A DNA stretch of 64,000 bases from Vermamoeba vermiformis (lineage: Eukaryota), in the NCBI GenBank assembly GCA_045837725.1, contig JBEWZL010000238.1:248001-312000 (forward strand). Direction: 5' to 3'. The notes below the pieces were generated by a model that worked only from the letters and a program-made list of their open reading frames with translations, did not search any database and was not told the origin of the DNA. Shown piece by piece: positions 15,927 through 62,300 of the stretch (positions are counted from its first letter, which is position 1; each line of letters opens with the position of its first letter). Made by a program: the position numbers and the translations under genes.

Positions 15927-16165
15927 ATAAAATATAAGTATTATAATAGATGAGCAATACATATTGGTCAACCTTGTAAATTCCCTAGACAAATGTTTGC
16001 AGGATATCATTTTTTTCAACTCCAGATCAAGTAACTTTGTAACGGATCCAATGTATTATTAAAAGATTTAGATATTTATAACATTACATCGTCTATTATG
16101 TTTCTCGTTCAAGCCAACTTGATGGCCGAAACGTGAAATAAAGAAAAAATTGACCACGAGCGGAT

Positions 16166-19100
16166 CTACAGCTTGAAAAATCCGAACAATTGAGCGCAAT
16201 CCACAACACCGTATCCGTTCTGTTGCAACAACACTGTGACGTCTGTGCAAATGTTCTCGAAATAATCGCGGATTCGTTGATGTTCTGGGGCAGTCAAGAT
16301 CAGGCGTTCTTCTCGTTGCTTTTCATCTTTCATGTCAAGCTTGTCCAAAAGGCGCATCCAATCAAACATGTCTTGGAAGTATCGCAATTGAGTGTATAAT
16401 TGGTTCTTATCATACTGCAAAAAAAAAAAAATTGGTCAGATCCAGGTCGATTCATGAACGATTTTTCCTTTTTAGGAAACTTACCTCCAAGCTCATAGTA
16501 CCGCTGCAACCTTTACGCGGGCAAGCAGGCTGTCCGTCGCTCTTCAGATTGAACTCACGAGTCTTAATAGCGCAAGTTCGTTCGTCGCATTGGTACGGGC
16601 TGCTGTAATATCGGCCAATGTGTTTGCGCGTAGCCAGTGTGACGGCATTAGTAATCGCAGCACCGCTAAACTGTCGTTTGCAGTTTTGACACAATGTGCA
16701 TGCAAAAATACCCATCGACTTGTCCTCTTCGGAAGCCTTGTGCCAGACACCCAAGAACTCATTTTCCTACAAAGGAAATTAGTACTTGATGACGGTCCCA
16801 GGTACTTCTTATATTACCTTAGAGCACGAAGGGCACTTCAATACCAGCTTTTCGACGTCCTTGTACTTCACAGTGTCATCAGTGAGCGAAGGCAAAGCCA
16901 CGTTAGAGTCAACGCCAGCATTGTTGAGTCTAATGCCAAACTTAGTGGGGTCCAAGCCCAAGCATTGAGCGATCAAGACGTTGTCGGTGCCGTCAAGAGG
17001 CTCGATCAAACGGGCAATAGGAGGGTAGATCTGGGCAGCAAAGTACCATTCCAGATCGATCTGCAAGTTCAACTTCTTGACGGTTTCAGGGTGGAAAGCT
17101 CGCGCACCCATTAAAGTGCTCTTATCAGCATCAGGAACCTTGCAGATGATGTACGGGATCACATCACCAACGCGTACTGATTGGCCCTAGAAAAAAATTA
17201 TCGTTAATTTCCGCGAACAAAAATAAGGGTCTGACTCGTGGTCAGAGGCTATAGAACTTACTTCTTTACGCATAGCAAGTGCGACTTGCACGTGAGGTTG
17301 AGCCTTTGAGTCATCCTTGTAGTCTTCAGGAGATTTTGTCAAAGACTAGATGCGGATCAGTTAGCAAATCCAAGTTGACGTTGAAGAACGTTTGTAAGCG
17401 TACCTTTGTAATGGCGAACTTCTTCAAAGGAACCTTGCCTTGACGAATATCGTCGGCCATGCCTCGCAAGTAGCCGTGGATGTTATCAACAACTTCGTCC
17501 TTAGCCGAAGACTTCAAGATCTTGTCCAAAACGTACCTGGTGTTACCTCATTAACAAATGAACCATATAGCTAATCAACTTAACGATACTTACTCTCCCA
17601 TCTCGTGAGAAAGCTCGCACCAATCTCTGCGCACAAGATCCAAACCCTTCTTTTCGATGGAAAGCTGAGTGCCGTCAGATCCGCCAGCACGAACAGCAGC
17701 GTACTTTTTCTTCTTGCACAAGAGCATCGTCTTGAAGATACCGTCGACTTCGATCTCAAGCGTTGACTTCTCGCCTTCACGAGCGTTGGAATTGTTGACC
17801 TCTTTCTTGATTCGTGAACCCATTTCTTGAACTGCTTTGTACGAGTCCAAGCCAGTGTTAATCATAATAGAGTCCGTATCACCATAAATAACCTAAAGAA
17901 GGCATTAGTAACTTGCATTAAACTAAAATAACATGTTGTACTTACTTCCAAACCCAATTTCTTGGTGGCAATGTCAACGGTCTTTTGCAAGTTTTCACGA
18001 CCTTTACGAGTTACGAGCTCGGCTAAAGGCATGGCCATGAAACGTGAGTTGGAGAAACCCAAGCAACCATACATAGAGTTAGCAACCAACTTCAAGGCCA
18101 ATTGTTGAATTTCGAGCTGAGACTTGGTGTTGGAATCGGAGGCTGCTCCGAGCTTCTCTTTAACTGCACGACGTCTTTGGACCAAGCTTCTAATAACCGT
18201 CGGCAAGATACCAATACTGGTACCTTGTGGGGGAGGATCGGACAATTGCCACTTCTTGGGATCAGCCGGATCCTGCACGGATGCGTTAGAAAATTTAACT
18301 TTACACCTTTGCCATATCAATCACTACTTACCTTCTTACGGTCAATTGTAGTGAAGCAAATGTTGTACTCTTGGATGATAGAAGGATACAAACTCTGGAA
18401 ATCGAGCAACAAAATGTACTTGTCGTACAGACCCTTCTTCGGCTCCAAGACGAGACCTCCTTCATAAGCAGGCTGCTTCTTCTTAGTAAAGCCTTCGCCA
18501 CCCTCCTCAACTATACCACGCGTTAGTACTCGCCAGCTGTAACATCAATGTATGAGACTTACGCTTGGCCTTGTCAGGCAACATGTAGTTGTGAGCATAG
18601 AACTCGTGCAAAAGCAAGTACTCAATACGTTCAGCACGAGCACCAGTCAAAGATCTGTACCACAAGTTACCAGAGACTTGTGTCAGTTGCTTAGTCAACG
18701 GCAGAACGTTGAGCTTGAACATCAACTTCAACGTCAAGAACGCGTCGTTTGTGGTCAATCGGCAGAAGTAGAGCAAGTCCTCCGTGGTACCGAACAACGA
18801 GGGCATCTTGTCTGAGTTGACAGACTGTCTGTTCGTGTTCAACTTGGTTCGTGCCAAAGTTGACAAAGTGTAATCTTTCGACTTGATTAATTCCTGAAAA
18901 TAACGGTTAGCCTCAAATCCATCGCTTTTCTAATGCCTAAACGAACCTTAGCTGAGTGATAAGTGTCGCAAACAAGTCGACCAATAGTGACCTTTCGCTT
19001 AGTGTAGTTAGACTCTCCCTTGTTGTTAATACCTGTCTTCTTCAAGTGAGGCATGCTAAATTGGCGTTAGAATAGCCCTCGAGTAACTAATAGAGATAAC

Positions 19101-21859
19101 TGTACGTACTTCTTTTGGTTAAGTCTGCCAAGCTTGGACCACGAGACGCATTGGAGATCGTGCATGCGGTGCAACAAAACGTCAAGATCATAACCGTTGA
19201 TGTTGTGACCGACGAGCATATCAGGGTCGAAGTTGCCAATCATTTCTGACATGCAAAAGGTTAGTCTTAAAGTCATACAATGGTTTAATGCGCAACCACT
19301 TACCCATCGCAGAGTTCAACAAGTCACGTTCGTTGGGCTTAACTATGATGTTGTTCTCGAGCTTGTGCTCAGTCAAGTAGCGAGAGAAGGACAAAGGCAA
19401 GGTATGGCCTTGAGGCTTGCGCAAGAAGACAATGTCTGAGGTGTCCTTTTGAGTCTGTTCAATAGGCGTGGGAACCTCTGTGTTGACGTTTCGCTTGAAG
19501 AGCAAGCCAACGGCAATAATCTCGTTGACTTTGTTGCTTTGGTTGACGACTGTTTGAACCTTCAACGAGCAGATTGTGACTGGAGGAACAGGCGGAAGAT
19601 TGTCGTAGACAACAGTCAAGTGAGTAGGGCTGTCGATTGAGCACTCGAACTTGCACCATGATTTCTAATTAATAGTTAACACGTGAATGTAACATATGGT
19701 CTCGAGAAGGACTTACCATGCCAGAATTGGCTTTGACGTTTTTCAAGCTGACCCAGCCAGGACCCATCAACTTGCGTTGAATGATGAAGTTCTCGAGGGC
19801 CGAGACGTTGCCCAAGATGTGACTGAAAGTGTTACCCTTGAGGTCGGCAGGAAGCTCTTGAGCGCTGTAAGGATACACGACTTCGAGCACTTCAATGTTC
19901 TTCTTGCGCGGAATGTCTTCAATTTCAAAAGCGTAGTTCTTGGCGACTTTTCTGCTCTTGTAGTCGAAGCTGCCGTGGTTGTTTCGGACAGTCATGAATT
20001 CTTTTTGAACTTCCTCGACCTTGACAGGAATAGGATTGCCTTCAGCATCAACTTCACCCGAGTTCTGCTTGGGCACGACGTAGATTGTACGTTCAACGCC
20101 TCTCACAGTCAAAGCGCAGCTGAGGAACTGCTTGGTCTTGGGCTCATACACTAAATAGGTTCTGTCAGACAAGTACTCGCGTGAAGACACGTGTGACTTT
20201 ACTCACCTTTGCCGAACATGTAAATAGTGCCAGGAGCACCACGTTGGTCGTCTTGAGCATCGAGCCAATAGAACAATACTTCGCCGTTGGAAGTTTTTGG
20301 AAGTTCGTCGATGGACTTAGCAGGACCAAAGTCTACAACGGGCGTTAGATCCAATACCACTCCCGAGTATTATCATAATCGAACTTACTTTGAGCGATAA
20401 TGTCAGCACCAGCGTCTTGATCTTTCTCTTTCAATGCAAACCAATCGTCGCCAGTGTATTTAGCAGCTTCAGCGTCTTCCTCGGCTTGGTACTTGGCAGC
20501 ATTATTTTCATCGTCCTCAACTAAACGAGACAATCGTAATTAGCTCGTGTCACTAGTATGTATATTAAAGCTAGTCCTTACTATCAGACATATCAACCAC
20601 TTTGGCGGCAGCACTGTTAGATTTGGCAGCGCCAGTGGCGGTCGAAGAAGCTGACTCTTTGGGCTTGTCTGAGCCATTGGCTACGGGCTTGTCAGCGGGT
20701 TTTGTGGCTGCCTTAGCATCAGTTGTGTTCGTGTTGTCGGACACTGTGTTAGCATCGACTTCCTTAAAAGGAACTTTGGCGGGCTATTGCACGAGTTAGT
20801 CTCAAAGTGACCACATCCGCGAGAACAGAATCACCGTTCTTACCTCCGAAGTGACCTTCTTGAAAGGAGGGGCGATAGGAACAGGTGCTGCGGGGGCCAA
20901 GGGGTTCTTTTTGATATCGGCGAACAAAGCCTCCAACTCGGCGTTAATCGGAGTGTTCTCATCCGGCTTGGCAGCACCAGTCTTTAACTTCTTGGTCTAT
21001 TATAGGAACCAATTGATTAGTACTATAATGTGAATAGCTTTTAGAGCATAGCACGTACCGGAGTCTTTCCTTCGGTTGTGGATTGTTTGGGATTCAAAAA
21101 CATGTCAGTGATTCTTTGCGAAGGAACTGAGGTTTCTTGTTTACGTTGGGCGCGCTTTCTCTTTTTACCGAGCTTGCTGTCGCCATTAGCGGCCTTCTTT
21201 TTCTTTCCGGAGGTTGAATCTGAAAAAGGCGCATTAGCCGATCCGAGCCAATGAACCTTATTATAAGCGTATTTTCTCGTGCACCGTACCTTCTTCATCC
21301 TCTTCGTCATCGTCAAAGCCTAAATCATCCTCTCCGTAATCGTCGTAACCGAGGCCATCTGTTTGCGATCGTGTAAGCATAAAATGATATCATTGTGGAT
21401 AATAATATTGCTCATTATCAGAAGTAACGTATTGTTATAATTTGCACGTACCATCGTCTTCAACAAACATCTTGCTGCGCTTTTCCTCGGTCAATTTTCT
21501 GTATTCTGCTTCATCGACCTCGCTGTAAATAGGAGCTTCCTCTCGCACCTATAAATAATATTAAATATTATTGTCATAATTAGCGCCGAGTAATACGCCC
21601 ACGGCTATTTTTGTTTGTTATTTATTATATTTTCTTTTTGTAATTTCAAATCCGCGCCAAAAGAATCTATCTATGAATTATTTAGGCTACTTACTTCGTA
21701 ATCTCGTTTACCACCGTCTTTTTTAATACGATTCAAATCTTCAAGAGCCTTTTTGGCGGATTCATTCACGCCACGTTTTGCTTTCACTGTGCGGCGAGTG
21801 GTTCTCTTGTCCTCTTGGACCTCCACGCCGTTGTCATTAACTGGCTCTTCCATATCCAT
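16166..21859 (-). CDS. POLA1: DNA polymerase alpha catalytic subunit
   Basis: Family-B motifs [58 protein letters not shown]; Pol-alpha N-terminal FVEDD..G.GY; C-terminal zinc-finger cysteines. Confidence 0.97.
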
Positions 21860-21956
21860 GCGCAAGTATGGTCTCCTTGACAACAAACAATTTGAATAAT
21901 GAATTACAGTTTGGGCGGGAAAAAAATCTGCGACCGTTTTTGGATCTTTTTCGCGC
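21654..21956. promoter_or_regulatory. Three E2F/DP consensus sites (TTTSSCGC) around the POLA1 start
   Basis: GCGGGAAA at 21915-21922 and TTTCGCGC at 21949-21956 upstream of the ATG; GCGCCAAA at 21654-21661 in intron 1. Confidence 0.7.
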
Positions 21957-22431
21957 CTTCTGTTATTAACTCGCGAGCTGAAAGACTCCACAACTCGCCA
22001 ATCACTTTATACTATTTAATACATCGCACGATTGTAAGCAAAACTTGCGGCTCTTTGTTGCGGCAAGTGATTTTTAATTGGATGCTGAATCCGAGTGCTC
22101 TAATTGCGTACGAAATTTTAGGTATATGTTCTTAAATATGTAATTTTTTACCACTATACAAGCTGCAATCTGTTTTACAACCAAAGATCAACAAGGCTCC
22201 AGAACGACATCCACTACGAACGGCTTAGAAACGTCTAAAAAACAGTCTTAATAGCTGCTGTTAAGACTGTAATACAAGGTTTGAGCAGTATTTTGCTATT
22301 TCGATCGATTTAAGCTTTTATAGACCTAAGCACGTGATTGTTTTCGGTTGAAACGAACGATTTTTGGCAATATTTATTACCAATCCAATGACTCGTATAC
22401 ACTATATAGAATACCGTTTGATGGCACTCTA

Positions 22432-27085: not shown

Positions 27086-28754
27086 ATGGACGCCACAAAG
27101 AAAACAAAAAAAAGCAAGGACAAGGAGCAGGTAATTTTTAATTTATAGATATTCACATATCTGAAGAAGTTCTATTCCTCCTTGAAGTGTAAAGTGACGC
27201 CAATATTTTAAATTAATTTTTAATTTTAATTTCATTCAGTTGCCGACCCCTTACTCTCAGCGAGATGTTATATCATTGATGGAGGCTGGCAAAGATTTTA
27301 TAATAGATTTGAGGGATTGGGAGATTGAAGGGCAGAAGGGACTAAAATATTTAGCGCGGGCGATCCACCGATCTCTTACTCTCGAGAAAATTAGTCTTGC
27401 TAACATACGAAAAATCTCACCTAGAGACATGGAAAGAATAATAGAAGTATTGAGTGACCACAAAACTATTACCACGCTGAAAATCAGAATGTCGTCTTCG
27501 GATGCAGAATACAAAATCTTGACAAGCGTGTTACAAAAAAATGCTAGAGTCAGGTATTTAGAGCTTGATTGCGCAGAATTATCACTTGAAACTGCAACTC
27601 TACTGTCAGATTCGTTGAAGGTCAACACCAGTCTGGATGAGATCAAATTTATTGCAACAAAGTTGGATGTCCCTAAACTGGCCATATTAGCAGAAGGTCT
27701 AAAAGTACATCCAAAGATACACACGACGCAATATTACTCAGAGACTCTCAATAACGAGTGCAGCAAAATCATCTTTTCAATCATCGAGCAAAATCCAAGG
27801 ATTAAAAGCCTCGAATTATCGGCCTCGCTGAGAGAATTTACCGCTTTAGAAGAGTTTGTCAAAACTAATACTACATTGGAGGCTATTGGATTCTACGAGA
27901 TTAGACCACCGCATCTGGATCCTTTCTTGCAAGCGTTGGCAGTCAACAATGGTCTTAAAGAATTTACTATGCGACATTCACATTGGGATTACTCAACGTG
28001 CAAAATTTTGGCAAATACTCTCAAAACAAATACTACCTTGCAGATCTTGCGTGGCGACTCGAAGTATTTGAACGCTGAACACGTTCGCTTGTTGTCTAAA
28101 GGATTGGCAGCCAATAATACCTTGAAAAAGTTAGATTTCCGAGAAAATAATCTTAACTCGGTCATGGACAAGACGAAGAACCCGAAAGGAAAGCCTACCG
28201 GCACCGGAGCATTTTGCGAAGCGTTGAAAAACAATACGTCCATTACAGACATCGATATATCAAATAACAAGCTATATGAACGTGGGTACGTTGATATCGC
28301 AGCGTTGCTTAAGAACAACAAAGGCATCCGGAAACTACAAATGGATCTGTTCATTGGCCACACGACCATTGACGAGTCTCTCAGGCTCATATGCGAGTCC
28401 TTAAAAGTCAATAAGACTCTAACCTCTTTAAAGCTCTATCAGTGCGTCAAGTTTTCAAATCAGGCTTGGAGTTACATTACGGAGATGTTAGAGGTCAATA
28501 GAGCCTTATCAACGCTCGAAATACCTTACGTAGACATTCCTGAAAATGTGCAGCGAAAATTAAAAAAGAATAAGAGGCGGCGAGAGAAGGGAGTAAGATC
28601 CGCCAAAATGTTGATCAGCATGATAGCGCTGCGGCCAAAAGCTTATAGTGCCGTGCTGCCTATCGAAATTTGGGCGCTTGTACTGAGGTATTACGAAGTT
28701 ACGGGCGTAAACATCAACTTCGAAAAGGAGTTTTTGGCTAAACTAAAAAATTAA
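27086..28754 (+). CDS. RNI-like (NLRC3-type) LRR protein with a C-terminal F-box-like motif
   Basis: Short Lys-rich first exon, then a 1.5-kb exon with repeated L..NTTL..L units, ending in LPIEIWALVLRY. Confidence 0.85.
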
Positions 28755-28839: not shown

Positions 28840-30527
28840 ATGGAGAAAAACAAGACTAAGCACAAAACTTTAGGCGCCAAGCAAAAAGTAAAAAAAGAAA
28901 AGGTACATAAATTGTGATTATGCTGAAAATAATCAAAATATTAATAGTAATTTTTTAAAATTATTAGGCGAAGAAAGTGGGGGTTATTGAAAAAACTGCT
29001 CTTACCACGAGATACGTAAATCAATTCCTTGAAGAAAAAGCCCCTTTCGTCATCGATATGACAGTGGTAGATACGTATCAAATACATGAAATGAATCAAC
29101 TTTTTGCGGATGCGATCAAGGGAAGCAAGACGCTAAAAAGTTTCTTTTTCGTGTATCCTAGAGCAACCATTTCCATAGACGATTGGAACGCAATGACAAA
29201 TGCATTATCCGAAAATCAATCAATTACAGAGCTAGGTTTCAATAATAAAGGGCCCAAAATTGACGCTGAAAAAATGTTAGTGGATGTGCTCACCCGCAAC
29301 AAGAGGATAAAAAAGCTCGGATTTACTTATCACTCCAAGAATACGATGAAATACTTGAAGCACACCGTCGGCAAAGGAAGCTCGATTGAACATCTAGACA
29401 TATTGCAGTGGACTCAAGCTGAATCAACGGATCAGGAAGACTTATTTAATGCGTTGAAGGAAAACACGTCTATAACTACGTTGAGCTTAAAGCAACAAGG
29501 ATTGGGTTATTCAAGCGACCTTCTAAATAGCATTCTGAAAGCATTGGTGTTTAATACAACAGTTCACACTTTCATCGTAGATCTTGGAATAAGCAGCGCT
29601 TCAAACGAGGAGATTTCATTGTTTAAGGAATTGCTGCAAAAAACTAATTCACTAAAGACGATTGATTTGTACGACAGAAGATCAGTAGTGAAGTATTTGC
29701 CGATTATAACAGAAGGTCTGAAAACAAACAAGTCCGTAGCAAAACTGGTTCTCGATATATCGATAGAACAAGAGGATTATGCCTTATTAGGGGACGTTCT
29801 TATGGTTAACAACACATTGACGAGCTTAGACATGAAAAATACGGAGATTTCGTATAGCAGACTTGCAGATTTTGCACGAGGCCTAGCGCACAATTCAGGC
29901 TTAAAATCTTTGAATATTAGAAACAAATATCGTAGAAGAGCAAATGAATCGACAGATGGGTTGGACGCATTGGAGAACGCGTTGTTACAAAACAACACTT
30001 TGACCAAATTGGACATTAGAAACGCACCGGCGAAAGACTTTGAAAAGCTTTTGACGCATAATAACACATTACAAACGTTAAAATTGTGCGTGGATACTCC
30101 GGATATACAGTGGTTACTCAGATCTCTCACGAAAAATCAATCCTTGACAAAACTTGGGATGGTTAAGAGCCCGGGCTTCTCGCAAGATTTCTTCGAATCA
30201 ATGACGAGTTGTTTGGAGTTCAATCATTCATTACTATATTTGGAAGCAACGTCGGTTTGGGATTTGGGAGGCACAATGGCTCAGACTTTTGATCCGGAGG
30301 CTTGGACCAAGATTTTGGACCGAAATAGAGCCAATATGAAAAAAAGAAAATCGGAGATATTACTCGTTCTTCGGACAATTTTAAAACAACCCGGATTCAC
30401 TGAAAGGCTGCCACTGGATCTTTGGGCGAAGATTCTCTCCGAATTAAAGTTTCCTGGCATTACAGCTGATTTAGGACAAGTATTATATTCGTTATCGCAA
30501 CGCCCTAACGCAAAAGTGTTATTTTAG
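28840..30527 (+). CDS. RNI-like LRR protein with a C-terminal F-box-like motif (tandem paralog)
   Basis: Same two-exon layout; NNTLTSLD repeats; LPLDLWAKILSEL near the C-terminus. Confidence 0.85.
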
Positions 30528-31816: not shown

Positions 31817-32041
31817 GAGAAATTGCCAGAATTTTATTCGAAGAGCTACATTCGTTAAATAAATTGAATTTTTTTGTGTCGCATAATATTGATCAATTGT
31901 AATATCAGGATAAGACAAGTAAACCTTGCTTCATAAGGAAATGCGTATAAAGCGGACGTATATTCCAAATTAGGCAAGAAGAAACCGGGTTGATTTGTAC
32001 GAGTTGAGTTTTTTACTATTACTATTAATTACTGCACAATA

Positions 32042-34525
32042 ATGAAGCTATTATTGCTAGGCATAACCCTTTTGCTGGCGCTTAATTTTGGGAGCGCTTA
32101 CGTTCCTGAAGAAGTTTCCATTCTGATCTCAGTAACGCTTCAACGCGCAACTCCGTCGATTGGCCTCGAATGGAATTATACCCCACCAGCAGATGTTACC
32201 TGTTCCACCGAGTGCGTTTTCGATTTGTTCAGATGCGCTGATCCGTTCGATCCGACCCCGGACTGCTGGGGCCAGGCTATTTATACCGTTGATGTTACCC
32301 AAGGGCCAGGAACTTATAGTTATACTGACACTAATGTTCAGGTAAGGCTAAACAAATACTCACTAAGTACTTTACTAAAATTTCAGTTTGATCTCTTTCT
32401 GGAAAATTACTTTTTACGTAAAATCATATTATATGAGAGTACTACATGAACGGATTTCCTTTAGTTTTTTTTTCGGATCAAAGCAAAATTGTAACCAAAT
32501 ATTTGTCCTTAGATTGGTCAGCCTTACGAGTACAAAGTTGTCTTTAGGAATTTAATTCCTTACACTGAAGGCTATGTCGTGGCAGGAATTGATCTGCCAT
32601 TGATCGAAAACAGAGGCCACGTAATTCTTGTGGTAGCTTCGGATGCGGCGACAAACATGACTGAAGAGCTTGACCAGCTTAGAATGGATATGATTGGCGA
32701 CGGATGGGAGATTTCTAACATTTTAGTAGATATAACTGATACTGGTAAGTTTGAACGGAAATCAAAACTCGATCTGCAACTAAAATTTCTCCTTGAAGTG
32801 CCTGATGTCCATAATAAGATTAAAGAAGCCCATAATAATCGCGACATGTCGACCATATTTTTGTTCGGAAATGTTGCTGTACCCTACAGTGGCGATCTCA
32901 ATCCGGATGCTCTTTCATATCACAAAGGCGCTTGGCCTGCTGATGGTACAAGCATACTACTAGTTATACATGTATGCTAATTACATATTTGCAGCATTCT
33001 ACACAACGCTTAATGATAGCGTGTGGACCGATTCTATCGTCAACAACGTTGATGCAACAGATCCGAGAAATCACAACGTCCCTGGTGACGGCAAATACGA
33101 TATTAGCTATCTTAACAGCAACGACTACTCTTACCCGATCGGAGATGTGCGTCCAATCACAATCTCTCATATGGAGGTGAGTAAACCAAGTTTGTTCTGC
33201 TTCGAATTTGTGGGCTGACTTTTTCGTAGCTTGGACGAGTTAATTTGAATCAATTTGACGGATACGACGAAATGGATTTATTAAGGAAGTATTTGAAGAA
33301 GAATCATGGGTACAGACATCGGGAGCCCGAGTACACTTACGCGCAAAAGGCAGTCATTAACGATCTTTGGAAAAACAATGCAGCATTGCAGCCTGAAGCT
33401 ACTGCAGCTGCGGCGTAAGCAAAACATGATCATATATAGTAGTATTTACTTTGTATAACCGATTTTTAGTTGGCGAACTTTTGCAGGGTTAGTCGGCAAA
33501 GACAACATCCGCGAAGCGAATTTATTTGAAGCTCTTGATACGGACACGTAAGTACATATTATTAATATAATGGCATTAATTGGTAATTAAGGGCTGTTCT
33601 TTCTTTCTCTGTTGGTTTCGGATCATACGTTTCTCAGTACGTTGATACCCCGAACATTGTTGTTTACTTCTATTACGACTGGCTGAACAAGACCGTTAAA
33701 TCGCCTTTTCAAATTCAATCTGGTGGCATGTTTCCTGATTGGGATGTGCCGAACAATTACTTGCGCTCTGTTATCGCTGGAAGTCACGCGTTGTCAGTGA
33801 TGACTTCATCTCGTCCTCAAGCGTACTTCCATCATTTGAACTCCGGCACTCATCTTGGAAAATCAGCTCGATTGACGACAACACATGAACAAAAGTATAT
33901 AACGGTAAGATTTCTTGGAGAAGTTCAGCCGTCCAGATCTGACGGAGTTCTATTTTTAGGGTTACTATCCAACCGCAGTGACTCATTCTTTGCACGGAGG
34001 TACGCAAAATGAAAATATTTGCAACGTATTCTCATCCGATTAACTATACTTGTGCAATTAGATCCGACTCTTCGGATGTACGTTGTGGATCCGCCTCGCG
34101 ATGTTGTACGCGATAATTCGGAGAATAGTGGTGTTAAACTATCATGGACTGCATCTTCAGATACAGTGCTTGGCTATCACGTGTACAGATCAACAGCGTC
34201 GCTTGATGGACCGTACACCAGAGTCACAGAAAATATCGTGAGTGAGACCACTTTCACCGACACGTCAGCTGTTCAAGGAAAGAATTACTACATGGTGCGG
34301 GCCGTACAACTAACGCAGACGCCGGCAACTACATTTTACAATCCAAGTCAAGCTGCTTTCTTCGAAACAACGTTCCCATCACCGTCACAAAGTCCATCAT
34401 CACCGTCGAATTCTCCATCAAAACCTCAAACTCCTGGTACGGCAGCCTTGTCATTGGGTTCAACTTTATCGGTACGATTGCTGCTCGTAGTAAGTTCTTT
34501 GATTGTTACTCTGGCAGTCCTTTAG
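32042..34525 (+). CDS. Secreted/GPI-anchored peptidase-C25-like + fibronectin-III protein, copy A
   Basis: Signal peptide; GHVILVV..ELDQLRMDMIGDGW, LFGNVAVPYSG, GAWPAD..Y, LGRV, HSLHGDPTLR; FnIII LSW...VLGYHVYRS...YYMVRAV; Pro/Ser linker and hydrophobic C-terminus. Confidence 0.75.
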
Positions 34526-34892
34526 GAACAAGTCATATTGCATTTTATATTTTATTAGTAAAATTTAAGGTTTTTGCATCGCGTTCCGAATACAGAGAGG
34601 TTTACGCTGACCTTTGGGTTCAATTCAAACCAAACTGATTAACTTATCGTCCGATTTGGAGCAACTACAACTTTTCTGCGTGGATGGATCTATCATACAA
34701 ACTAGAACTAGATTTTGCATTTAAAGAGGTCAACGGGGTATTAATTTTTAAAAATTCGACAGAGAAACCGCGACAGTTGCAGTTCTATTCTTTTCCGGAG
34801 TTGCTATGTTTGGAAGCAGCTCCGCTTTCCGAAGCTCCCGTCCCGCTTTACTCAACAGTTTAACGTAGTGCGACCACGATACTAACACAACG

Positions 34893-37409
34893 ATGAAGTC
34901 ATTATTATTACTGTGCCTACTCTTGCTGACCGAAAGCAATTTTTACGTCAGCGCGGTGTATCCGGAAGAAATATCCATTCAGATTAAAGTAACGCTGCAA
35001 CGCGATGCCCCTGCGATCACCCTCGAATGGAATTACACCCAACCAGCTGATGCTGACACATGCGTTTCTGATTGCGTCTTCGATGTTTTCAGATGCGATG
35101 ATCCGTTTGATCCGACACCGAATTGCTGGGGAAATCCCTTTTGCACTGCTGATCTCATCCAGGGCCCAGGTTCTTATGGTTGTACCGATACTAATGTTCA
35201 GGTAGGTTGACTGATGAACAAATAAAGAGGTGAATTAATTTTTGTAAAGCGGAACAAAATTTCATTTCTAATTTAAAAATATTTACCTCTATTTTTGTTA
35301 TTGAATTAGTATTAATACTTATAGCGCTTGGTCGATAATTTGACCGTTTTCGCTTTCTTCGATCCGAACAACAAACGAATACAAAATTGTACTAAAACAG
35401 TTATCCAGATTGGTCGGCCTTATGAATACAGGGTTAAATCAAGATTTATTGTCAAAGCTTCTTATTCTCCCCCTGATGGCTATGTCGTGGCAGGTATTGA
35501 TCTGCCATTGATCGAAAACAGAGGCCACGTAATTCTTGTGGTAGCTTCGGATGCAGCGACAAACATGACTGAAGAGCTTGATCAGCTTAGAATGGATATG
35601 ATTGGCGACGGATGGGAGGTTTCGAATATTTTAGTCGAACTCAACGATACGGGTAAGTTGCCAACAAAAAATGAAAAATAAATTATAAAATCGATCCGAA
35701 TCTAACTTCAATCTGCAGTGCCCGATATCCGCAGTAAGATTAAAGAAGCTCATAATAATCGCGACATGTCGACCACATTTTTGTTTGGAAATGTGGCTGT
35801 TCCCTACAGTGGCGAACTCAGTCCGGATGGACACACAGACCACATAGGAGCTTGGCCCGCTGATGGTAGAACTATAATCCGTCTTTCAAGGATAAACTAA
35901 TCTTCTATTATTCAGTTTTCTACACTTCATTGAATGATAGCGTGTGGACTGATTCTATCATCAACAACGCAGGTGCAACAGATCCGAGAAATCACAACGT
36001 TCCTGGTGACGGCAAATACGATGTAACCTTTCTAAACAACCTTCAAGTGCCTTTGATAATCGAAGTGCGGCCTATAACTATCGCTCATCTGGAGGTAAAC
36101 CTGGACTTCGAGCAATTTTACAGTCTGACCATTTTCATCAGCTTGGACGAGTTAATTTGAAGCAATTTGACGGATTTGACGAAATGGATCTATTGAGGAA
36201 GTATTTGAAGAAGAATCATGGGTACAGACATCGAGAGCCAGAGTACACTTACGCGCAAAAAGCAGTCGTTAACGATGGTTGGAAAAATGTAGCAATAATG
36301 CAACCCGAAGCTAATGCAGCTACTGCGTAAGTCTGAATGCACAATAAAGTTAATATACATTTAAATAATGGTTATCATTTTTTCAGTTGGCGAACTTTTC
36401 CTGGATTGGTCGGCATCGAAAATATCTACGAAGGAAACTTGTTTGACACTCTTTATAACGATACGCAAGTACTTTCGATATATTTTGCATTATTAATGGT
36501 ATTTTTCAGAGCTATTCTTGCATACGCAGTTGGTTACGGAACATACACCTCCGAGCAGTACGTCGGAAGTACCTCCGATTGGCTGACAAAGACCGTTAAG
36601 GCCCCGTTTCAATTCCACCACGGAAGTTACTTCATTGATTGGGATGTGCCGAACAATTACTTGCGCTCTGTTATCGCTGGAAGTCACGCGTTGTCAGTGA
36701 TGACTTCATCTCGTCCTCGAGCGTACTTCCATCATTTGAACACGGGTACTCACCTTGGAAAATCAGCTCGATTGACGACAACACATGAAGACAAATATCA
36801 TTCGGTGAGATGACAAGAGATTTAAAAGTTTTCTTTGAGATGTGATCTGAGATGCGTTCTTTTTTAGGGCTTGTTTAAAAATTCAGTCACGCATTCTTTA
36901 CACGGAGGTATGTTTATTAATTTTTCAACGATTTTGAACTAATGCGTGGTTTGTCGTGAGCAGATCCGACTCTTCGAATGTACATTGTGGATGCACCTCG
37001 CAACGTCACTCGTGATAATTCTGAGAAAATTGGCCTGAAACTATCATGGAATGCATCTTCAGATACAGTGCTTGGCTATCATGTGTACAGATCAACAGAG
37101 TCGTTTGATGGACCGTACATCAGAGTCACCGAAAATATCGTGAGTGACACCACTTTCACCGACATGCCTGCTGTTTCGGGAAACATGTACTACATGGTAC
37201 GAGCCATACAACTGACGCAGACGCCGGCAACTACATTTTACAATCCAAGTCAAGCTGCTTTCTTCGAAACAACGTACGTTGCACCTCCACAAAGTCCTAT
37301 CCCGCCACCAAACGCTCCTGGTAAACCATCCGTGGCATTCGCTTCAACTTTATCGGCACAATTGTTGCTCTTAGTAAGTTCTTTGGCCGTCACTCTTGTA
37401 GTCCTTTAG
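34893..37409 (+). CDS. Peptidase-C25-like + FnIII surface protein, copy B
   Basis: Paralog of copy A with the same intron positions; one intron needs a GC donor at 36465. Confidence 0.75.
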
Positions 37410-38046
37410 GAATAACAGTCACTCTGTGCGAAACACCTTTCGGAACAACCGTTATGTTGTATTCGAGTGTAAAGTATCTCATTTCACCAAACAGAATAGC
37501 TGCTACAGTAAATTAAATTTACGTATTTACATCACCTTTTGGCATCACATATCTAATGGCCGTTGCTACACATAACGGTTCCGAAATGGTTATTTGAATT
37601 CACGATTGAAGTACCCACAGCCATTAAGACATTGGTGTGGTAGATCGGTCGTTTTTCATCGTCACGTGCTTTCATCGAATTACTCTAAACGTTTAAGAGA
37701 AACTGCGTTTTTACTATGTTTGGAAGCGGCCTCGCTTTCCGAAAATCAAGGCCCGCTTTACTCAACGTTTAATTTAATGCAACCACAAGTAAAGTAATGA
37801 TGAAGTCATTAATATTACTGGGCTTACTCTTGCTGAGCCAAAGCAATTTTTACGTCAGCGCGGTGTTTTCGGAAGAAATATCCATTCAGATCAAAGTAAC
37901 GCTGCAACGCGATACCCCTGCGATCACCCTCGAATGGAATTATACCCACCCAGCTGATGCTAACGCATGTGTTGTAGACTGCGTCTTCGATGTTTTCAGA
38001 TGCGAGGATCCTTTCAATCAGACTCAGAATTGCTGGGGAAATCCCT

Positions 38047-38307
38047 AAAGTTGAATTAGATAAAATGAGATATCTCCCATTCTGAAAACAAAGTTGCTTC
38101 AAAATGATCAACTCACCTCAGGCAGTACCACGCACAAGGTCCGGTCGCCAAACACTCGAAAAAAAATTTTACATCTGTGATCTGAAAAAAAAATTTTACT
38201 GCCTGTGCACCGGACCATGCGGAACAGATTGCCTGAGGTGAGTTGTGCAAAATGAAGTCAAGTTGTTTTTTCAATGAGACGTATCTCATTTTATCTAATT
38301 CAACTTT
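38047..38307. mobile_element. 261-bp MITE, copy 1 (TIR AAAGTTGAATTAGATAAAATGAGA, 4-bp TSD CCCT)
   Basis: Perfect terminal inverted repeats of at least 24 bp; CCCT at 38043-38046 and 38308-38311; absent from the matching site in copy B. Confidence 0.97.
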
Positions 38308-40033
38308 CCCTTTTATACTGTCGATCTCATTCAAGGCCCAGGTTCTTATGGTTGTACCGATACTAATGTTCAGGTATTTGACTTACGAAAAATTAACAAC
38401 GTTAATTAATTTTGTAAAGCGGAACCAAAATTTCATTTCTAATTTAAAAATATTTACCTCCAATTTTTTTTGGTGAATTAGTAATAAAGCCTGTAATACT
38501 CGGTCTATAATTTGACCGCTTTCGCTTTCCTCGATCCGAACAAAATTGTACTAAAATAGTTATCCAGATTGGTCGGCCTTATGAATACAGGGTTAAATCA
38601 AGATTTTTCATTCGTTCTGGTGATAATAATTATCCTCCTCCCGATGGATATGTCGTGGCAGGAATTGATCTGCCATTGATCGAAAACAGAGGCCACGTAA
38701 TTCTTGTGGTAGCTTCGGATGCAGCGACAAACATGACTGAAGAGCTTGATCAGCTTAGAATGGACATGATTGGCGACGGATGGGAGGTTTCGAACATTGT
38801 AGTCGAACTCAACGATACGGGCAAGTTGCCAACAAAAAATACAACTAAAATCGATCCGAATCTAACTTCAGTCTTTAGTCCCCGATGTTCGCGACAAGAT
38901 TAAAGAAGCTCATAATAATCGCGACATGTCGACGATATTTTTGTTTGGAAATGTGGCTGTACCCTACAGTGGCAATCTTAATCCGGATGCACACCAAGAC
39001 CACCTTGGAGCTTGGCCCGCTGATGGTAAAGCTATAAGATGACTTCATAGATAAACTAATCTTCTATTAATCAGCTTTCTACACTTCGCTTAATGATAGC
39101 GTGTGGACTGATGAGCTCATCGACAACGCAGCTGCATCAGATCCGAGAAATCACAACGTTCCTGGTGACGGCAAATACGACGTTAGCAATCTAGGCTTCC
39201 TTCAGATATCTGAAAAAAACATATATATCCCATGGAGGCCTATAACTATTTCTCATTTGGAGGTAAGACGAAACGTCTATCTGGTTTACAGTCTGACGTT
39301 TTTCATCAGCTTGGACGAGTTAATTTGAAGCAATTTGACGGATTTTACGAAGTGGATTTATTAAGAAAGTATTTGAAGAAGAATCATGGGTACAGACATC
39401 GGGATCCCGAGTACACTTACGCGCAAAAAGCAGTCGTTAACGATGGTTGGAGATACGTTGCAGCATTGCAACCCGAAGCTAATGCAGCTCCTGCGTAAGT
39501 CTAAATGCAATATTGAATATAGTAATAATTAATTTGTTTTTCAGTTGGCGCTCTTTTCCTGGATTGGTCGGAATTGAAAATATCTATGAAGGAAACTTGT
39601 TTGAAGCTCTTTATAACGATACGCAAGTACTTTCGATATATGTTGCAGTACTAATGGTATATTTCAGAGCTATTCTTGCTTATGGAGTTGGTTACGGTAC
39701 TTACACCTCCGAGCAGTATGTTGGAAGCACTTACGATTGGCTGACAAAGACCGTTAAATCGCCTTTTCAATTCCATTATGGAAGTTACTTCCCTGATTGG
39801 GATATACCTAACAATTACTTGCGCTCTGTTATCGCTGGAAGTCACGCGTTGTCAGTGATGACTTCATCTCGCCCCCAAGCGTACTTCCATCATTTGAACA
39901 CGGGTACTCATATCGGAAAATCAGCTCGATTGACGACAATACATGAAGGCAAATATTATCCGGTAAGACTCACGCATAACAGAGGTTCAAAAAGTTCGAT
40001 ATCTGAGATATGTTCTTTTTAGGGTTATTATAT

Positions 40034-41599
40034 CCCTTTGATCCCTGCGCACGAAAAAAAATTAATTTCGGGCGAAGATATTGGTATTTCAATTAAATTG
40101 GGCATTTTTTTGCGCATTTATAAGCTATTTACACCTAGCTATAGGGAGGTTTTTGCTGAATTTCTTCGAGTAAAAAAAATAAATAAATTATTACTCGATC
40201 TGGTCTTTAACGCGTCGCTCTGTCTTTTATCTTTGATAATATTGATGAAATAGCATACAATTAACTTTAGCAAGCTTATCACTTGCTGCCCTGTAGTTGC
40301 GGGCGATTCGCTGCCAAAAAAATAGTCTTTTCGCTGGCAAAACCGATTTATTATTCACTCCGCAATCACAGTACCATGAAGCACGACCAAATCATCTACC
40401 AGAATAAGCTGGGGTGACACCAAATCACCTTGGCCGCGTCCACTGGAGATGCTGCGGCCACATTCATGGGAAATTATCGAACTGCAAGTTATATTTGGTT
40501 TGATAATCGGAAAAAAATTGTCTTATATATAGCCATGCATTGTCGATAAAATACTAGCTGAAGAGAAGCAAACAGGTATAAAAATTTCAGATTCGAATTT
40601 TTTAATTTTTAAATATTTTCTGCACGAGCACTGTTACAAATCAATGCTTCTAAACTTACACTTACCTTTATAGATTGCAGTTATTAAATTTAAATCATTA
40701 ATGTGCAAATTCTAACGGCTATATTTTTAGGCGGCAAGTTTTTCGCGCACGATCTGAATACAACAGGTATCGATGCGGTAAAACAATGCACTACGTAATT
40801 TTAAATGACTAATTCAATACGGAAACAGCAACGGTAAGTAATAATTTACGTACCATAGTTGCGGCGAATGCGTGCCAGCAAAATTCAAGTTTTTACAGTT
40901 CCAAGGTGAATTTCATCGCCTATCTAACACTGTGTATTATATTTAGGATTGTTAAAACTATTGGACACTATTAATTATCAATAAACAATGTTAAACAATC
41001 CGGCGTCTAAGGGTGAAACCTTAGCGCCGCTACAACGAGAAAGTTACGCGTTGATTCTCGACGATGTGGGTCAGAGTATGGTCTGGAGGTCGTGTTGCTT
41101 CGGTGACACCACTGGTTCGGAACAGCACTCTCACTGGCACTGAGTTGGATGGGCTAGAAAGTGACTTGTCACTTGCCGTAGCGGACACTCTTTTGTTGTA
41201 CGGTCTCCTTTATGGAGGGGTGTCATCTTGATGCCTGCGACCTTTATCTTGATGAATCGCATGGTTTTGGCCGTGTCAGTCACCTCAACGTGACTTCGAC
41301 ACTTGGATGGGTTAGGGCCCGGCCAAATTCCTCCCTATGAATACTTAGGCTTGCTCAACCAAGTCTTGTATTGCGATTTATCCCTTTTTAATGATAAAAC
41401 AAAGAAATAAGCTTGGGGAAGTGGATCGGATCCGGGGCTGATCTGGATCCACGCAGGGGTGTGGCGCACTGTCAATGGACATCGCCCAACAAAATTGTAC
41501 CATTTTTTGTACTACAGTCTCTTCTGGCGATTAACGGAAATCAAAGGTCCTGAATTTTTGTATAATTTTTATCTAAAAGCATTGGCCGGCCGAAGAGGG
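40034..41599 (+). mobile_element. 1566-bp non-autonomous element with CCCT...AGGG ends and ATAT TSD (piggyBac-like termini)
   Basis: ATAT at 40030-40033 and 41600-41603. Removing the element and one ATAT restores GGT TAT TAT ATG AAT TCA GTA ACG CAT, matching paralogs A and B. Confidence 0.92.
41001..41490 (+). ncRNA. Candidate structured RNA inside the 1566-bp element
   Basis: About ten consecutive hairpins, a C-UUCG-G tetraloop at 41098-41103, G-U pairs that favour the + strand, repeated CTCAAC loops and a repeated TTGGATGGGYTAG motif. Confidence 0.6.
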
Positions 41600-42390
41600 A
41601 TATGAATTCAGTAACGCATTCTTTACATGGAGGTACGTATTTTGATTTTTCAACGACTTGGTACTAACAATTGGTTTGTCGTGAGCAGATCCGACTCTTC
41701 GAATGTACGTTGTGGATGCACCTCGCAACGTCACTCGTGATAATTCTGAGAAAATTGGCCTGAAATTATCATGGAATGCATCATCAGATACAGTGCTTGG
41801 CTATCACGTGTACAGATCCACAGAGTCGTTTGATGGACCGTACATCAGAGTCACCGAAAATATCGTGAGTGACACCACTTTCACCGACATGCCTGCTGTT
41901 TCGGGAAAGATTTACTACATGGTACGAGCCATACAGCTGACAGAGACGCCGGCGACTACATTTTATAACCCAAGTCAAGCTGCTTTCTTCGAAACAACGT
42001 ACGTTGCGCCTCCACAAAGTCCCATACCGAAAACTAAACCAACCGTGGCATTCGCTTCAACTTTATCGGCACAACTGTTGCTCGTAGTAAGCTCTTTGAT
42101 CGTTACTCTTGTAGTCCTTTAGAAACAACCGTATTATTGTATTGTAATAAACATAAATATTCATTGCATTTCCTATTTTAATCGCAAAAGTTAATACGTC
42201 ACAACTTATCGCATGACATATTCATAGCCTGGCTTGGAAAATTCTTTTCTAGAAACAAGTACTATGTTTAAGTAACGCACCAAAAATACAATTTGTTGAA
42301 CGAGTTCGGGTTTTTATTTACAAATGCGTGGTCAAAAGTGTACAAGAACTCCGTTTCGAGCGAAATATAAACGGGTTTTAAAGTCGTTTT

Positions 42391-43609
42391 TTATACGCTG
42401 TGATGAACGCTCTTGTAGCTCTCGATCAAATCTTTGACTTGTGAAACATTTGGGATATTTTCGAAGGCGTACGGGTTAGCGTAAAGATTGCTTCTGATTG
42501 GATGAGCACCTATAATACGAAAATACATTAATATCCATACTATTTAGCGAAATATTAATAGCGGTGCGTACCAGCAAATGTCAAGCTAAATGTCAAAGTG
42601 CCAGATCCGTCTTCTTTTCTCGTCATCGAAATTTGCTGCAAGCCCTCGTAGTCACTCGAATGCACCAATACGGCATTTGATTCGCGAAATTTCGGAGTTA
42701 AAACGATCATGAAAATACGTTTGTTCGTGATGCCGTAGAGTTTGATGTCAGTTTTGAACAAGCGATAACATCCACCGATAAATAGCATAATCCTATTATA
42801 AGAGTAAATAATACTATATATGACATAGAATATGATATTACCATGATGCTACACATGCAACAGCAACCAGCAATGGCCAAGAAATATCGTTATCACAATA
42901 GACTCCAAAAAAGACAAGACTAGCAAGAGCTGCTAAACCAGATGAACCAAATGAATCTGCAGCTCGACGGTCTATATAAAATATTAGTATCATTAATTAT
43001 AAGGTTTTTAGCGTCGCTGATCGGATCTTACTTTGGATCGCAGGTTCGAATGCCCAAGCCAAGACTTCATCCGATTTAATTTCCGATAAAAGATGATTTT
43101 TATGCTCGCTTGATACTGTTATATTATCTGAAGGTGTAGGAGTAGGTGAGGTAATCAAAGGACGTCTACAAAAAGCAGATCAGCGATGGTCGTACCGTAG
43201 AAATAATTTGCGCGGCGATTTATTTTTGTAAATTTATCATAATTTAGTATTATAATTATCGATATGTCGCATAATAAAGTAGAAGAAATGTGCACAAAGC
43301 AATTTTTCAAACTTACGTTTCTGAATCGTATTTGGGCTTTCTTTTCTTGAAGCAGGCTAGTACCGTCATAAATATAGATAATAATAGCAACGTTCCACAG
43401 AAGATTACTGCGGGAATGAAAAAAAAACGTTAGATCGGTGCATTTAAAGCAGGCCTATCTCTTTAAATATATTCCTATGAGTATATATAATACTTACTTC
43501 CTCCGATTAAGGTTTCGCGGGGAACTGATGATCCGTAAGCCGGATTTGTTCTAGCAGATACGAATCCGATCCCCAGCAATAGGCAGAGTAATTGCGGTAT
43601 ATGCTTCAT
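42391..43609 (-). CDS. Multi-pass membrane protein with a C-terminal bacterial-PH-like domain
   Basis: Signal peptide MKHIPQLLCLLLGIGFVSA, TM segments, then LYGITNKRIF...DGSGTLTF...FENIPNVSQVKDLI. Confidence 0.65.
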
Positions 43610-59573: not shown

Positions 59574-62300
59574 TTATTTCAATGAGTTGATAAACTCTTC
59601 CGCTTGTTGAACACCCAAGTCAATAGGCAACCACTTGTCATCGACCAACTCTTCTTTGTAGAGCAGTCCTTTGCCGTAGAACTTGATCATCGAATCCGAC
59701 ACAGATCTGATGTTCAAATCAAAATTGGTTAGTAGCAAAGCAAGTCTAGCTTATAATCACTCACCTCATGTCAATATCGCAACGCTTCCACTTCCCTTCA
59801 AGAGCGCACTTGACAATACGGTTCACGATAATGCTGTTGTCACGCAAAGCCTTGTACGGGAAGTACACAAACATTATTCTAGTCCAAATATTAGCATAGT
59901 AATAAACCATACAATGCGAATATCGTGTTAAATAGTAACAAAAGAAGATGGGATAGATTTTCAAAAAAGTGAATTTACATTGATTTTTTACCTCTCATGT
60001 TCAGACGAATGAACCTCAGCTGTAAAAGGTATTGGACCACTATCGCTATCAATTGAGCTCGCTACTTGGGAGGGTCTCCATACATCACTATAAGCTAAGC
60101 CACTAGCCGTCTCGTTAAGCGTTCCTTGCCTCGTTGAAATGGTGTCGTTCGGATTAATGACAGCAACTTTTACAGGTCGATTCTGACGTGGATCCGGTGC
60201 TTCAAAATCGACTACGCGGATAGTATCATACCCTGAGACAATGAACTTGCCATTATCGAACTTAAAAATCAAGCGTTAATAGATTTGATCTGATCCGTTA
60301 CAAAAAAAGTAAGGATCCGGATCACCAAAAAAAACTGTTACGAAAAACTTACTCCGGATAGATTAACATATTTAAAAACACCTTGTGCTATTAGTGTCGT
60401 TAAATGCTTGCCAGAATTGATGTCGACGATGTGTATCAACCGACCAAGGTTGCATAATAACAAGTTCTTGTGAACGTAAATATTTCGGCTGTAGTGTGCT
60501 GCTTCCATATTCGTTTTGAAATTTCCTTCTTTGAGAATGTTTCCGCTAAGGTCAATAATTGACCAGATTGTCTGATCTGAATCGATATCAGCCAACATTA
60601 TCTAAAATTTAATAATTAGCGTCAGATCAAGCTTACTTTGAAAATTGTAAACGTTTGAATATTATAATAATACTCTAGCGCATCCGCGATTACTAATTTT
60701 GGATTGATTTTGTCATTTCATTTTACCTTGTTATCGTTCAGGTAAAATTCTGTGAATAGAGGTATCTCTTTCTTCAAAACTTCGTCATTCGATTCGACAT
60801 CGACGGCTCGTAATATATGAATTGTTCCGCTTTCTTTGTACGCAATGATCTTTCCGTGCAGTTGAAAATCATAAACATTTTCTCCTAAAACTGAATCTGG
60901 CCTTTTAATTTCTTTGTACTGGCCAGTAGTCAAGTCAATGAGGTAGAAGTGATCGCGACTATATAAATATTAGTTATATAATTAAACCGCTTGCTGCTAC
61001 CTTACCCGTTAACTAAGATTGTTTCGTACGCAGGATCAGAATTGGATCTCCATTCACCGTCAGACACTCGAGCAACTAGCTCAATTACTTAGTACAAGTA
61101 TTAATCTAGTAACGTTTTTAACTGACCTTCAGGAAGAGTAAGCTCTTTAACATCGCCGGCATCGGATCTTCTTTGGATCTTCAAAGTACCTTTACCTTCA
61201 CCAAACTATGCCTTGGATTAGAGCATGTATTATATTTAAATATTCTTTGCAGCTACGTACCACAAAATAGGATGGTGTAATCATACTTAACCCTACTCTA
61301 CTACGACTTTTAATTTTTTGACGGGTTCCTGTTCTGGCATTAAAAAGCTCAATTCCATTCCGCTCCGAGGACGGAATATTAGCTCTAAATGGACGGTTAT
61401 TAACTATAGATATTTAATACGATATTTACCCTCGGCAGTCGTCAAACCAATTGATGAGCACATCAGATCCGGAGACGGTGATATCGGCGATTGTCATCGG
61501 AGGCGCGTAAATAGCTTGAGTTGAAAATCTAGCGATAAATTAGTCATTTTTAAAGTTGAATTAGATAAAATGAGATATCTCCCATTCTGAAAACAAAGTT
61601 GCTTCAAAATGATCAACTCACCTCAGGCAGTACCACGCACAAGGTCCGGTCGCCAAACACTCGAAAAAAAATTTTACATCTGTGATCTGAAAAAAAAATT
61701 TTACTGCCTGTGCACCGGACCATGCGGAACAGATTGCCTGAGGTGAGTTGTGCAAAATGAAGTCAAGTTGTTTTTTCAATGAGACGTATCTCATTTTATC
61801 TAATTCAACTTTTTTTACTAAGTTTTAATCACGTACCTTCCCTTTTCAATGTTTTGAAGCAACATGTCATTCAGATCTGCGTTTGTAAGTTAATCAAATC
61901 GTACCAACTATCTCGTGTACCTTTGTCGAGATGCAAAATAGTCTGTTGGTCATTCCGAGGCAGCTCAGTTCGGTCGAGATTGAGCTTATCCGGACGGGAT
62001 GTGAAGTTCCTTACAAACCTACGAGGTTCTTTAACTTTATTTTTGGGTTTGGTGAACAATCCATAAGAACCCTTTGGCATGGCAATCTGCATGAAAAGAA
62101 TAGTTAGCAAATTATTTTTTCTTTTTATTTAATAATGGGCATCCATCTGTCGTGAATTTACACATGATGCTACTCAGTAACACATTATTAATATTTTCTG
62201 GAATATTATTATGCGCACAAGATTCCTCTCAGCGTACCTTCAGGATCGAAGAGCGCATCGCGCTCTTTGCCAAAGTAGCAAGTGCCTTCCTCGTTGACAT
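59574..62300 (-). CDS. Hypothetical multi-exon protein, possible mitochondrial presequence and beta-propeller-like body
   Basis: Starts MSTRKALATLAKSAMRSSILK; the first exons join in phase; beta-rich segments such as IHIVDINSGKHLTTL; ends ...EEFINSLK*. Confidence 0.6.
61552..61812. mobile_element. 261-bp MITE, copy 2 (4-bp TSD TTTT), intronic
   Basis: Identical by eye to 38047-38307; TTTT at 61548-61551 and 61813-61816; lies in an intron of the minus-strand gene. Confidence 0.97.

Follow-up and report, generated by a model that had tools for sequence, protein, structure and literature searches.

Sola2-type elements of two dictyostelids are bounded by short terminal inverted repeats (TIRs), for which the text gives lengths of 12–13 bp or of 21 bp with imperfect matching, and produce 4-bp AT-rich duplications of the form AWWT (ATAT, AAAT and ATTT), according to the sections on these elements in Bao and Jurka (2013; PMC3627910). 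The same sections describe derivatives that have lost most of the transposase gene, as well as chimeric families of Sola2-type elements that bear Fanzor1 (DFa-1/2/3 and PPa-1/4/5). In that source, Helitron2 elements have a 5′ T, a hairpin at either end and inverted repeats that are asymmetric and 8–15 bp long, and canonical Helitrons (Helitron1) have 5′-TC and CTRR-3′ ends and insert between A and T (PMC3627910). The guide RNAs of Fanzor (omega RNA or fRNA), which are conserved, non-coding and stably folded, lie at the 3′ ends of transposons of eukaryotes and giant viruses, and in Chlamydomonas 20 extra copies of this type of RNA occur without the gene, as stated in the passages on Fanzor RNA in PMC10530073. 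Here we compare with these systems a 1,566-bp insertion (40034–41599) in a stretch of 64,000 nucleotides deposited under the name Vermamoeba vermiformis (contig JBEWZL010000238.1, positions 248,001–312,000; hereafter the window, in whose + strand numbering all coordinates are given). Its 3′ third (41001–41490) is rich in hairpins and had been put forward, in a preliminary description based on the letters of the sequence, as a strand-specific structured RNA. In our reading, to which we assign a probability of about 0.5, this segment is not a stand-alone RNA gene and would represent the 3′ third of a recent non-autonomous mobile-element insertion of a Sola2-like or Helitron2-like kind.

Self-alignment of the window identified a tandem triplicate of paralogous genes at ∼ 32000–34535, 34800–37419 and 37700–42132. 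Copies 2 and 3 align on either side of the hairpin-rich segment (36379–36810 with 39537–39968, and 36880–37179 with 41605–41904), and these blocks are separated by 1,637 nt in copy 3 and by 70 nt in copy 2. The extra DNA in copy 3, 40034–41599, has no counterpart in copies 1 and 2 of the paralog alignment. It interrupts an exon that measures 40 nt in these two copies and is divided in copy 3 into pieces of 11 nt (40023–40033) and 29 nt (41604–41632), a sum that holds after removal of the insert together with one ATAT. The left ATAT (40030–40033, + strand) makes up the final four bases of the left exon piece in the alignment with copies 1 and 2 and may be either a target-site duplication or a crossover core; the right ATAT (41600–41603, + strand), placed by direct reading and by the same alignment, immediately precedes the right exon piece. 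The segment 40034–41599 is an insertion into an exon of the third gene copy, with defined borders and without coding content, and its placement inside an inserted element, as proposed earlier, is borne out by the paralogs. The exons of copy 3 that neighbour the insert are still open and their protein products are 88% and 91% identical to those of copy 2, and the insertion is therefore recent. The gene itself has multiple exons, an fn3-like C-terminal domain and a hydrophobic tail, and its copies recur with periods of about 2.9 and 3.2 kb.

Gene copy 3 carries a second exonic insertion, a 262-bp miniature inverted-repeat transposable element (MITE) at 38046–38307, which is 100% identical to a copy located 23.5 kb away, at 61551–61812. 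The identity of the pair points to transposition in the very recent past, and with one of its members lying within an exon of the third gene copy, transposons are active here. The two MITE copies have long TIRs beginning AAAGTTGAATTAGATAAAATGAGATA and 4-bp duplications, CCCT and TTTT.

The 1,566-bp insertion, read on the + strand, starts with CCCT and ends with AGGG, and is probably a non-autonomous mobile element. The insertion contains no stop-free frame of more than 76 aa, and a repeat finder combined with direct reading detected in it no long terminal inverted or direct repeats, no long terminal repeat (LTR) and no poly(A); tandem repeats of any relevance were likewise not found in the region. 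No other copy of the insertion was found within the 64-kb window, and a search of the window for its ends, allowing up to three mismatches, matched only the ends themselves. The 5′ two-thirds (40034–41000, + strand) are AT-rich, with a GC content of 0.26–0.48 per 150-nt window and a fold z-score of −1.92 (20 shuffles), and include a subterminal 5′ hairpin at ∼ 40048–40074 that is nested in a longer inverted repeat with arms at 40052–40062 and 40104–40114. GC content is 0.45–0.55 over 41000–41450 (150-nt windows), and folding, hairpin counts and GC together delimit the GC-richer, hairpin-dense module at 41001–41490, which we assign to neither strand. Further downstream, a 3′-terminal hairpin of 9 bp (CTCTTC.GGC/GCCGAAGAG; 41519–41597, in which 41519–41528 pairs with 41589–41597) has a pair probability of at least 0.95 on both strands and finishes 2 nt short of the 3′ border of the insertion. 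Inside this hairpin, ATCAAAGG (41537–41544) was recognized by eye as an inverted match of the 5′-terminal CCTTTGAT (40035–40042), a match that could be a terminal repeat with the asymmetry seen in Helitron2 or could be due to chance.

Within its AT-rich part, the insertion has similar GC-rich words in two places, TAGTTGCGGGCGA...GCTGCCAAAA (40294–40345) and TAGTTGCGGCGAATGCGTGCCAGCAAAA (40858–40885), accompanied by the pair TTCGCTGCCAAAA/TTCGCTGGCAAAA, whose members are 23 nt apart. They may be subterminal binding-site repeats.

Every helix word named in the preliminary description was found where it had been placed; thus, CGGCG/CGCCG are at 41001 and 41025, GTGTTGC/GTGACAC at 41092 and 41103, TTTGGCCG/CGGCCAAA at 41266 and 41320, and two words occur twice each, CTCAAC (41284, 41354) and TTGGATGGG (41145, 41303). 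The module opens with an 11-bp hairpin that has a 1-nt bulge and a 6-nt loop (41001–41029) and is robust on both strands, with a pair probability of at least 0.97. It is followed on the + strand by the hairpin GTGTTGC-TTCG-GTGACAC with its two G–T pairs (41092–41109), recovered by word search, hairpin counting and folding, and by the first copy of the 13-mer TTGGATGGGCTAG (41145–41157), recovered by the repeat finder and word search. A composite hairpin at 41266–41327, robust on both strands, consists of TTTGGCC/GGCCAAA around GTGTC/GACAC and AGTCAC-CTCAAC-GTGACT, and the second 13-mer (41303–41315) lies on its 3′ side. The same CTCAAC loop appears again, on a different stem, in the hairpin at 41340–41372 (ATAC/GTAT and AGGCTTG-CTCAAC-CAAGTCT), and GTGGATC/GATCCAC forms a hairpin with GGATCC palindromes at 41421–41452; both were identified by word search and folding, with no strand assigned. 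Folding with added flanks (40981–41610) replaced both the UUCG hairpin and the helix GACACTC/GGGTGTC by long-range pairs of the same words; the long-range helices in this fold include 41103–41110 : 41219–41226, with which the UUCG hairpin competes, and 41066–41082 : 41499–41515. The architecture, as far as it can be predicted by folding, is unstable.

The module truly has more hairpins than expected by chance, but the excess is not extreme. On the + strand, the RNA fold of 41001–41490 has an energy of −176.7 kcal/mol versus −157.4 ± 6.3 kcal/mol for 100 dinucleotide shuffles (z = −3.06), and none of the shuffles was as good; on the − strand, z is −2.58 and 1 of 100 shuffles was as good. As a genomic control, 490-nt windows were sampled at 37 places across the 64 kb and folded on the + strand with 18 shuffles per window; they had a mean z of −0.53 (SD 1.20), and the only one with z ≤ −3, 40751–41240 (z = −3.82), overlaps the module. 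Six perfect Watson–Crick hairpins (stem ≥ 6, loop 3–14) were observed versus 1.02 expected, a number reached in 0 of 1000 shuffles, and two hairpins with unlike stems and the same loop, as seen with CTCAAC, arose in 3 of 500. The repeat of the 13-mer TTGGATGGGYTAG with at most one mismatch is less remarkable (26 of 500 shuffles). Two points of the preliminary description are upheld here: the region is dense in hairpins, more so than chance or the rest of the window, and two unlike stems carry the same CTCAAC loop, which is unusual.

The claim that the structure is strand-specific did not withstand this analysis. DNA energy parameters weigh G–T pairs little, and with these parameters the module has z-scores of −3.94 (+) and −4.07 (−), with 0 of 100 shuffles as good on each strand. 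Allowing G–T pairs, we counted 27 hairpins on the + strand versus 16.9 expected (12 of 1000 shuffles) and 14 on the − strand versus 7.6 (30 of 1000). The raw number of G–U hairpins ranks in the top 0.2% of windows on the + strand and at 35% on the − strand; this high rank, like the lower RNA energy of the + strand, goes along with its richness in G and T (A106, C112, G137 and T135 in the 490 nt). The hairpins of the module are short Watson–Crick inverted repeats, equal on both strands. Because the excess sits in such ordinary inverted repeats, it cannot by itself tell RNA from DNA, and the argument from the G–U wobbles and the UUCG loop to selection at the RNA level is not supported, given that neither a change to the − strand nor the use of DNA energies weakens the excess.

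An index of sequencing runs contained 24 runs with words from the insertion, none of them recorded as RNA. About 80% of the sampled words were present in four runs of one sample and 11–22% in 16 further runs from 12 other studies. Two of these 16 runs (X5 and X6) yielded two contigs each, of 151–256 nt and a depth of 2–3, that are 99–100% identical to the insertion and confined to it (40149–40402, 40715–40956, 40253–40403 and 41356–41604). The contig 41356–41604 departs from the window 5 nt beyond the last base of the insertion and continues for seven further letters that are unlike the window. These contigs are weakly suggestive of a repeated, mobile sequence, the contig edge being a single observation.

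Among the classes considered, the insertion agrees best with a cut-and-paste element like Sola2 or a rolling-circle element like Helitron2. The ATAT at 40030–40033 and 41600–41603 has the AWWT form reported for Sola2 duplications in the cited sections, although a 4-nt repeat in AT-rich sequence could also be due to chance or microhomology. The host group is probably related to dictyostelids, a weak point of likeness: the window is eukaryotic, with short GT...AG introns and genes for DNA polymerase α, a synaptojanin-like phosphatase and a RhoGAP, and the polymerase α fragment has its closest named relatives in dictyostelids, Physarum and Balamuthia. On the other hand, unlike the Sola2/Fanzor1 elements, the insertion has no remnant of a transposase or of Fanzor. 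The likeness to Helitron2 lies in the lack of true TIRs, the hairpins near both ends, and the 8-nt inverted match of CCTTTGAT to ATCAAAGG, the 5′ position of which fits. Moving the border by 1 nt within ATAT would also yield a possible 5′ T, an A^T insertion site and no duplication. The 3′ match, however, lies within the terminal hairpin (41519–41597) and not upstream of it, the target of the insertion is not T-rich, and a RepHel partner is not known.

Several observations weigh against this reading. None of the classes fits cleanly: the terminal repeat of the insertion is limited to CCCT/AGGG (8 nt counting ATAT), and the repeat finder detected at its ends nothing like the TIRs of 12–21 bp stated for Sola2 in the text of the source; its 3′ inverted match sits 55 nt from the 3′ end of the insertion versus ∼ 20–30 nt in the Helitron2 description consulted; and the 5′ hairpin (40048–40074) excludes the 5′ match, unlike in Helitron2. 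The amoebozoan placement suggested by the polymerase fragment is tentative, as the best dictyostelid sequence is 62% identical to it and those of plants and diatoms about 60%, a small margin. The mobility of the element is argued from one insertion site and one contig edge, and the missing coverage of its flanks in the sequencing runs is weak evidence because these runs were picked by the element's own words. A z-score of about −3 is modest and falls to −2.44 (+) and −2.23 (−) once the stretch is lengthened to the end of the element at 41599. Four of the nine helices listed in the preliminary description are made of the words GTGAC/GTCAC/GACAC/GTGTC, and some of the hairpin density may therefore stem from cryptic repeats. 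Finally, the role that we propose below for the hairpins is putative and derives from two of them. Mobility, copy number, class and any role of the hairpins are what we infer for this insertion.

As a putative mobile element of the Sola2-like or Helitron2-like kind, the insertion may use its hairpins in cis while it is single-stranded, either as a transcript or as a single-stranded DNA intermediate of transposition. The conserved loops, with CTCAAC occurring twice, and the repeated 13-mer would then be presented to a protein encoded by the element or by the host. If a protein bound the inverted repeats as double strands, one would expect the arms to be conserved and not the spacer. The stems of the two CTCAAC hairpins differ at several paired positions, and one loop kept while the stems vary suggests that a single strand is recognized in its folded form. 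We regard such a cis action as a tentative proposal, with somewhat less than an even chance of being correct. If the hairpins are conserved among copies, they would be a protein-recognition loop motif of a poorly known class of protist transposons, Sola2 or Helitron2. On the ordinary reading, the locus is one more unclassified non-autonomous transposon that happens to lie in an exon, which is not surprising; the insertion is useful in any case for annotating the repeats of this genome and for dating a very recent gene disruption.

The module could also have no function. Its hairpin density would then merely accompany a fragment of higher GC content, which may be captured or filler DNA and in which a few short words (GTGAC/GTCAC, GACAC/GTGTC) occur in both orientations; it would have been picked by eye from 64 kb. 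The modest z-scores just described are what this explanation would lead one to expect, as are the helices that share words and so have competing alternative pairings, the repeat of the 13-mer at a frequency that is not rare, and a signal that is symmetric and requires no RNA. The searches for relatives, too, were negative. A metagenome scan for two 13-mers at the given spacing returned five loci, none of which was similar to 39000–43000 of the window by BLAST at E ≤ 1e-3; both of the two loci inspected (L002 and L003) were unrelated tandem repeats with GGATGGGTTAG-like units, and such contigs were matched because the 13-mer resembles their repeat unit. Scans with exact patterns gave no matches in viral contigs (five patterns) or prokaryote genomes (one pattern), a blastn search with the whole insertion gave none in phage and plasmid collections, and its spurious frames of 55 aa (+) and 67 aa (−) had none in protein collections. 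Nevertheless, this explanation has to accommodate a degree of structure higher than in any other of the 37 windows sampled, the six perfect hairpins that no shuffle equalled and the identical hexaloop on two unlike stems, and we consider it unlikely. As a separate observation, contigs L001, L002, L004 and L005, which come from related samples, contain long GGATGGGTTAG-like tandem arrays unrelated to the window.

A second alternative retains the original proposal and would make the module a functional, strand-specific structured RNA transcribed from the + strand, such as an orphan guide scaffold of the Fanzor type, a ribozyme or a protein-binding RNA. The precedents described in PMC3627910 and PMC10530073 favour it as far as those accounts go, in that the Fanzor1 genes of dictyostelids are carried by elements of the Sola2 type whose duplications are of the ATAT kind, and Fanzor loci have a folded 3′ non-coding RNA with extra copies in Chlamydomonas. 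The insertion likewise has a stably folding non-coding segment in its 3′ part, near the right end, the predicted fold of the + strand spanning 41001–41597 and ending 2 nt from the 3′ end of the element, and it contains a C(UUCG)G loop and two CUCAAC loops on unlike stems. Unlike a Fanzor locus, however, the insertion has no adjoining nuclease gene, given that neither a Fanzor/TnpB-like frame nor any other long frame is present in it, and its fold signal is not specific for the + strand, the structural excess being equally strong on the other one. The UUCG hairpin is, moreover, unstable in the ensemble when flanks are included.

Known RNA families were also searched for. Rfam 15 covariance models had no match at gathering score in the whole window and, at E ≤ 10, only weak matches far below gathering in 39900–41800 and 40980–41520, the best of them in this stretch being Xist_exon4 (14.5 bits versus a gathering score of 100) and SNORD56 (15.8 versus 36); no tRNA or tmRNA was found. 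The earlier failure to recognize a known family in this sequence therefore stands, the models searched including RNase P/MRP, SRP, snRNAs, group I and II introns, hammerhead and other ribozymes. Two RNA runs with the same organism label had no reads over the whole of 39400–42200, exons included, and are hence uninformative on transcription. Taking the fold predictions and these searches together, we find a functional RNA quite unlikely.

A third alternative is a solo LTR, in which U3 and its promoter would correspond to the AT-rich left part, and R/U5 to the structured part of higher GC content, the latter forming the folded 5′ leader of a retrotransposon's genomic RNA with dimerization and packaging hairpins. 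LTRs are flanked by 4–6-bp duplications and have TG...CA ends, with exceptions, and the 5′ leaders that follow from them are highly folded. The insertion resembles a solo LTR in its length, its 4-bp duplication, its very short CCCT...AGGG terminal inverted repeat, its lack of coding capacity and its layout, AT-rich and then GC-rich and structured. It also has TATA-like runs near 40525 and 40577, an AATAAA at 40981–40986, immediately before the GC-rich part, and the palindromic motifs GGATCC and GGCCGGCC. However, the assignments of promoter and poly(A) signals were made by eye, the ends are CC...GG and not TG...CA, and inspection of the 64 kb revealed no second LTR, primer-binding site, internal region or gag/pol-like frame. 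We consider a solo LTR quite unlikely. The boldest reading is that of a structured RNA, working or recently orphaned, on a transposon of an amoebozoan-like protist. In its most concrete form, it would be a Fanzor-kind guide scaffold that persists and spreads on a Sola2-like element without nuclease and transposase, in which the CUCAAC hairpins would be recognized by a protein, and a nuclease from another locus could act on the element in trans; we give this reading the lowest probability of all. The ten longest other frames of the window match ordinary cellular Pfam families or none. Were the module transcribed and common to Fanzor loci, it would mean that guide-RNA modules spread without the nuclease.

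Four further candidates were rejected. A canonical Helitron would require the border to be shifted by 1 nt, after which the insertion starts with TC and sits in A^T but ends with ...GGGATA and not CTRR. A spliceosomal intron or introner does not agree with the CC...GG borders; a GT (40024) and an AG (41610–41611) are available in the flanking exon, and removal at these sites would also cost 18 exon nt. A MITE is inconsistent with the 1,566-bp length and the lack of TIRs, in contrast to the true MITE at 38046–38307. For a cluster of box C/D or H/ACA snoRNAs, or RNase P/MRP, there was no fitting arrangement of boxes by eye and no signal in Rfam.

Elsewhere in the window, the DNA polymerase α gene lies on the − strand within a GC-richer block at 16000–22000 (0.44–0.46). 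Two adjoining intron-less frames of ∼ 518 aa (27198–28754 and 28968–30527) have no Pfam match above the cut-off; both show a leucine-rich-repeat-like periodicity and similar C-terminal LPxxxWxxxL motifs.

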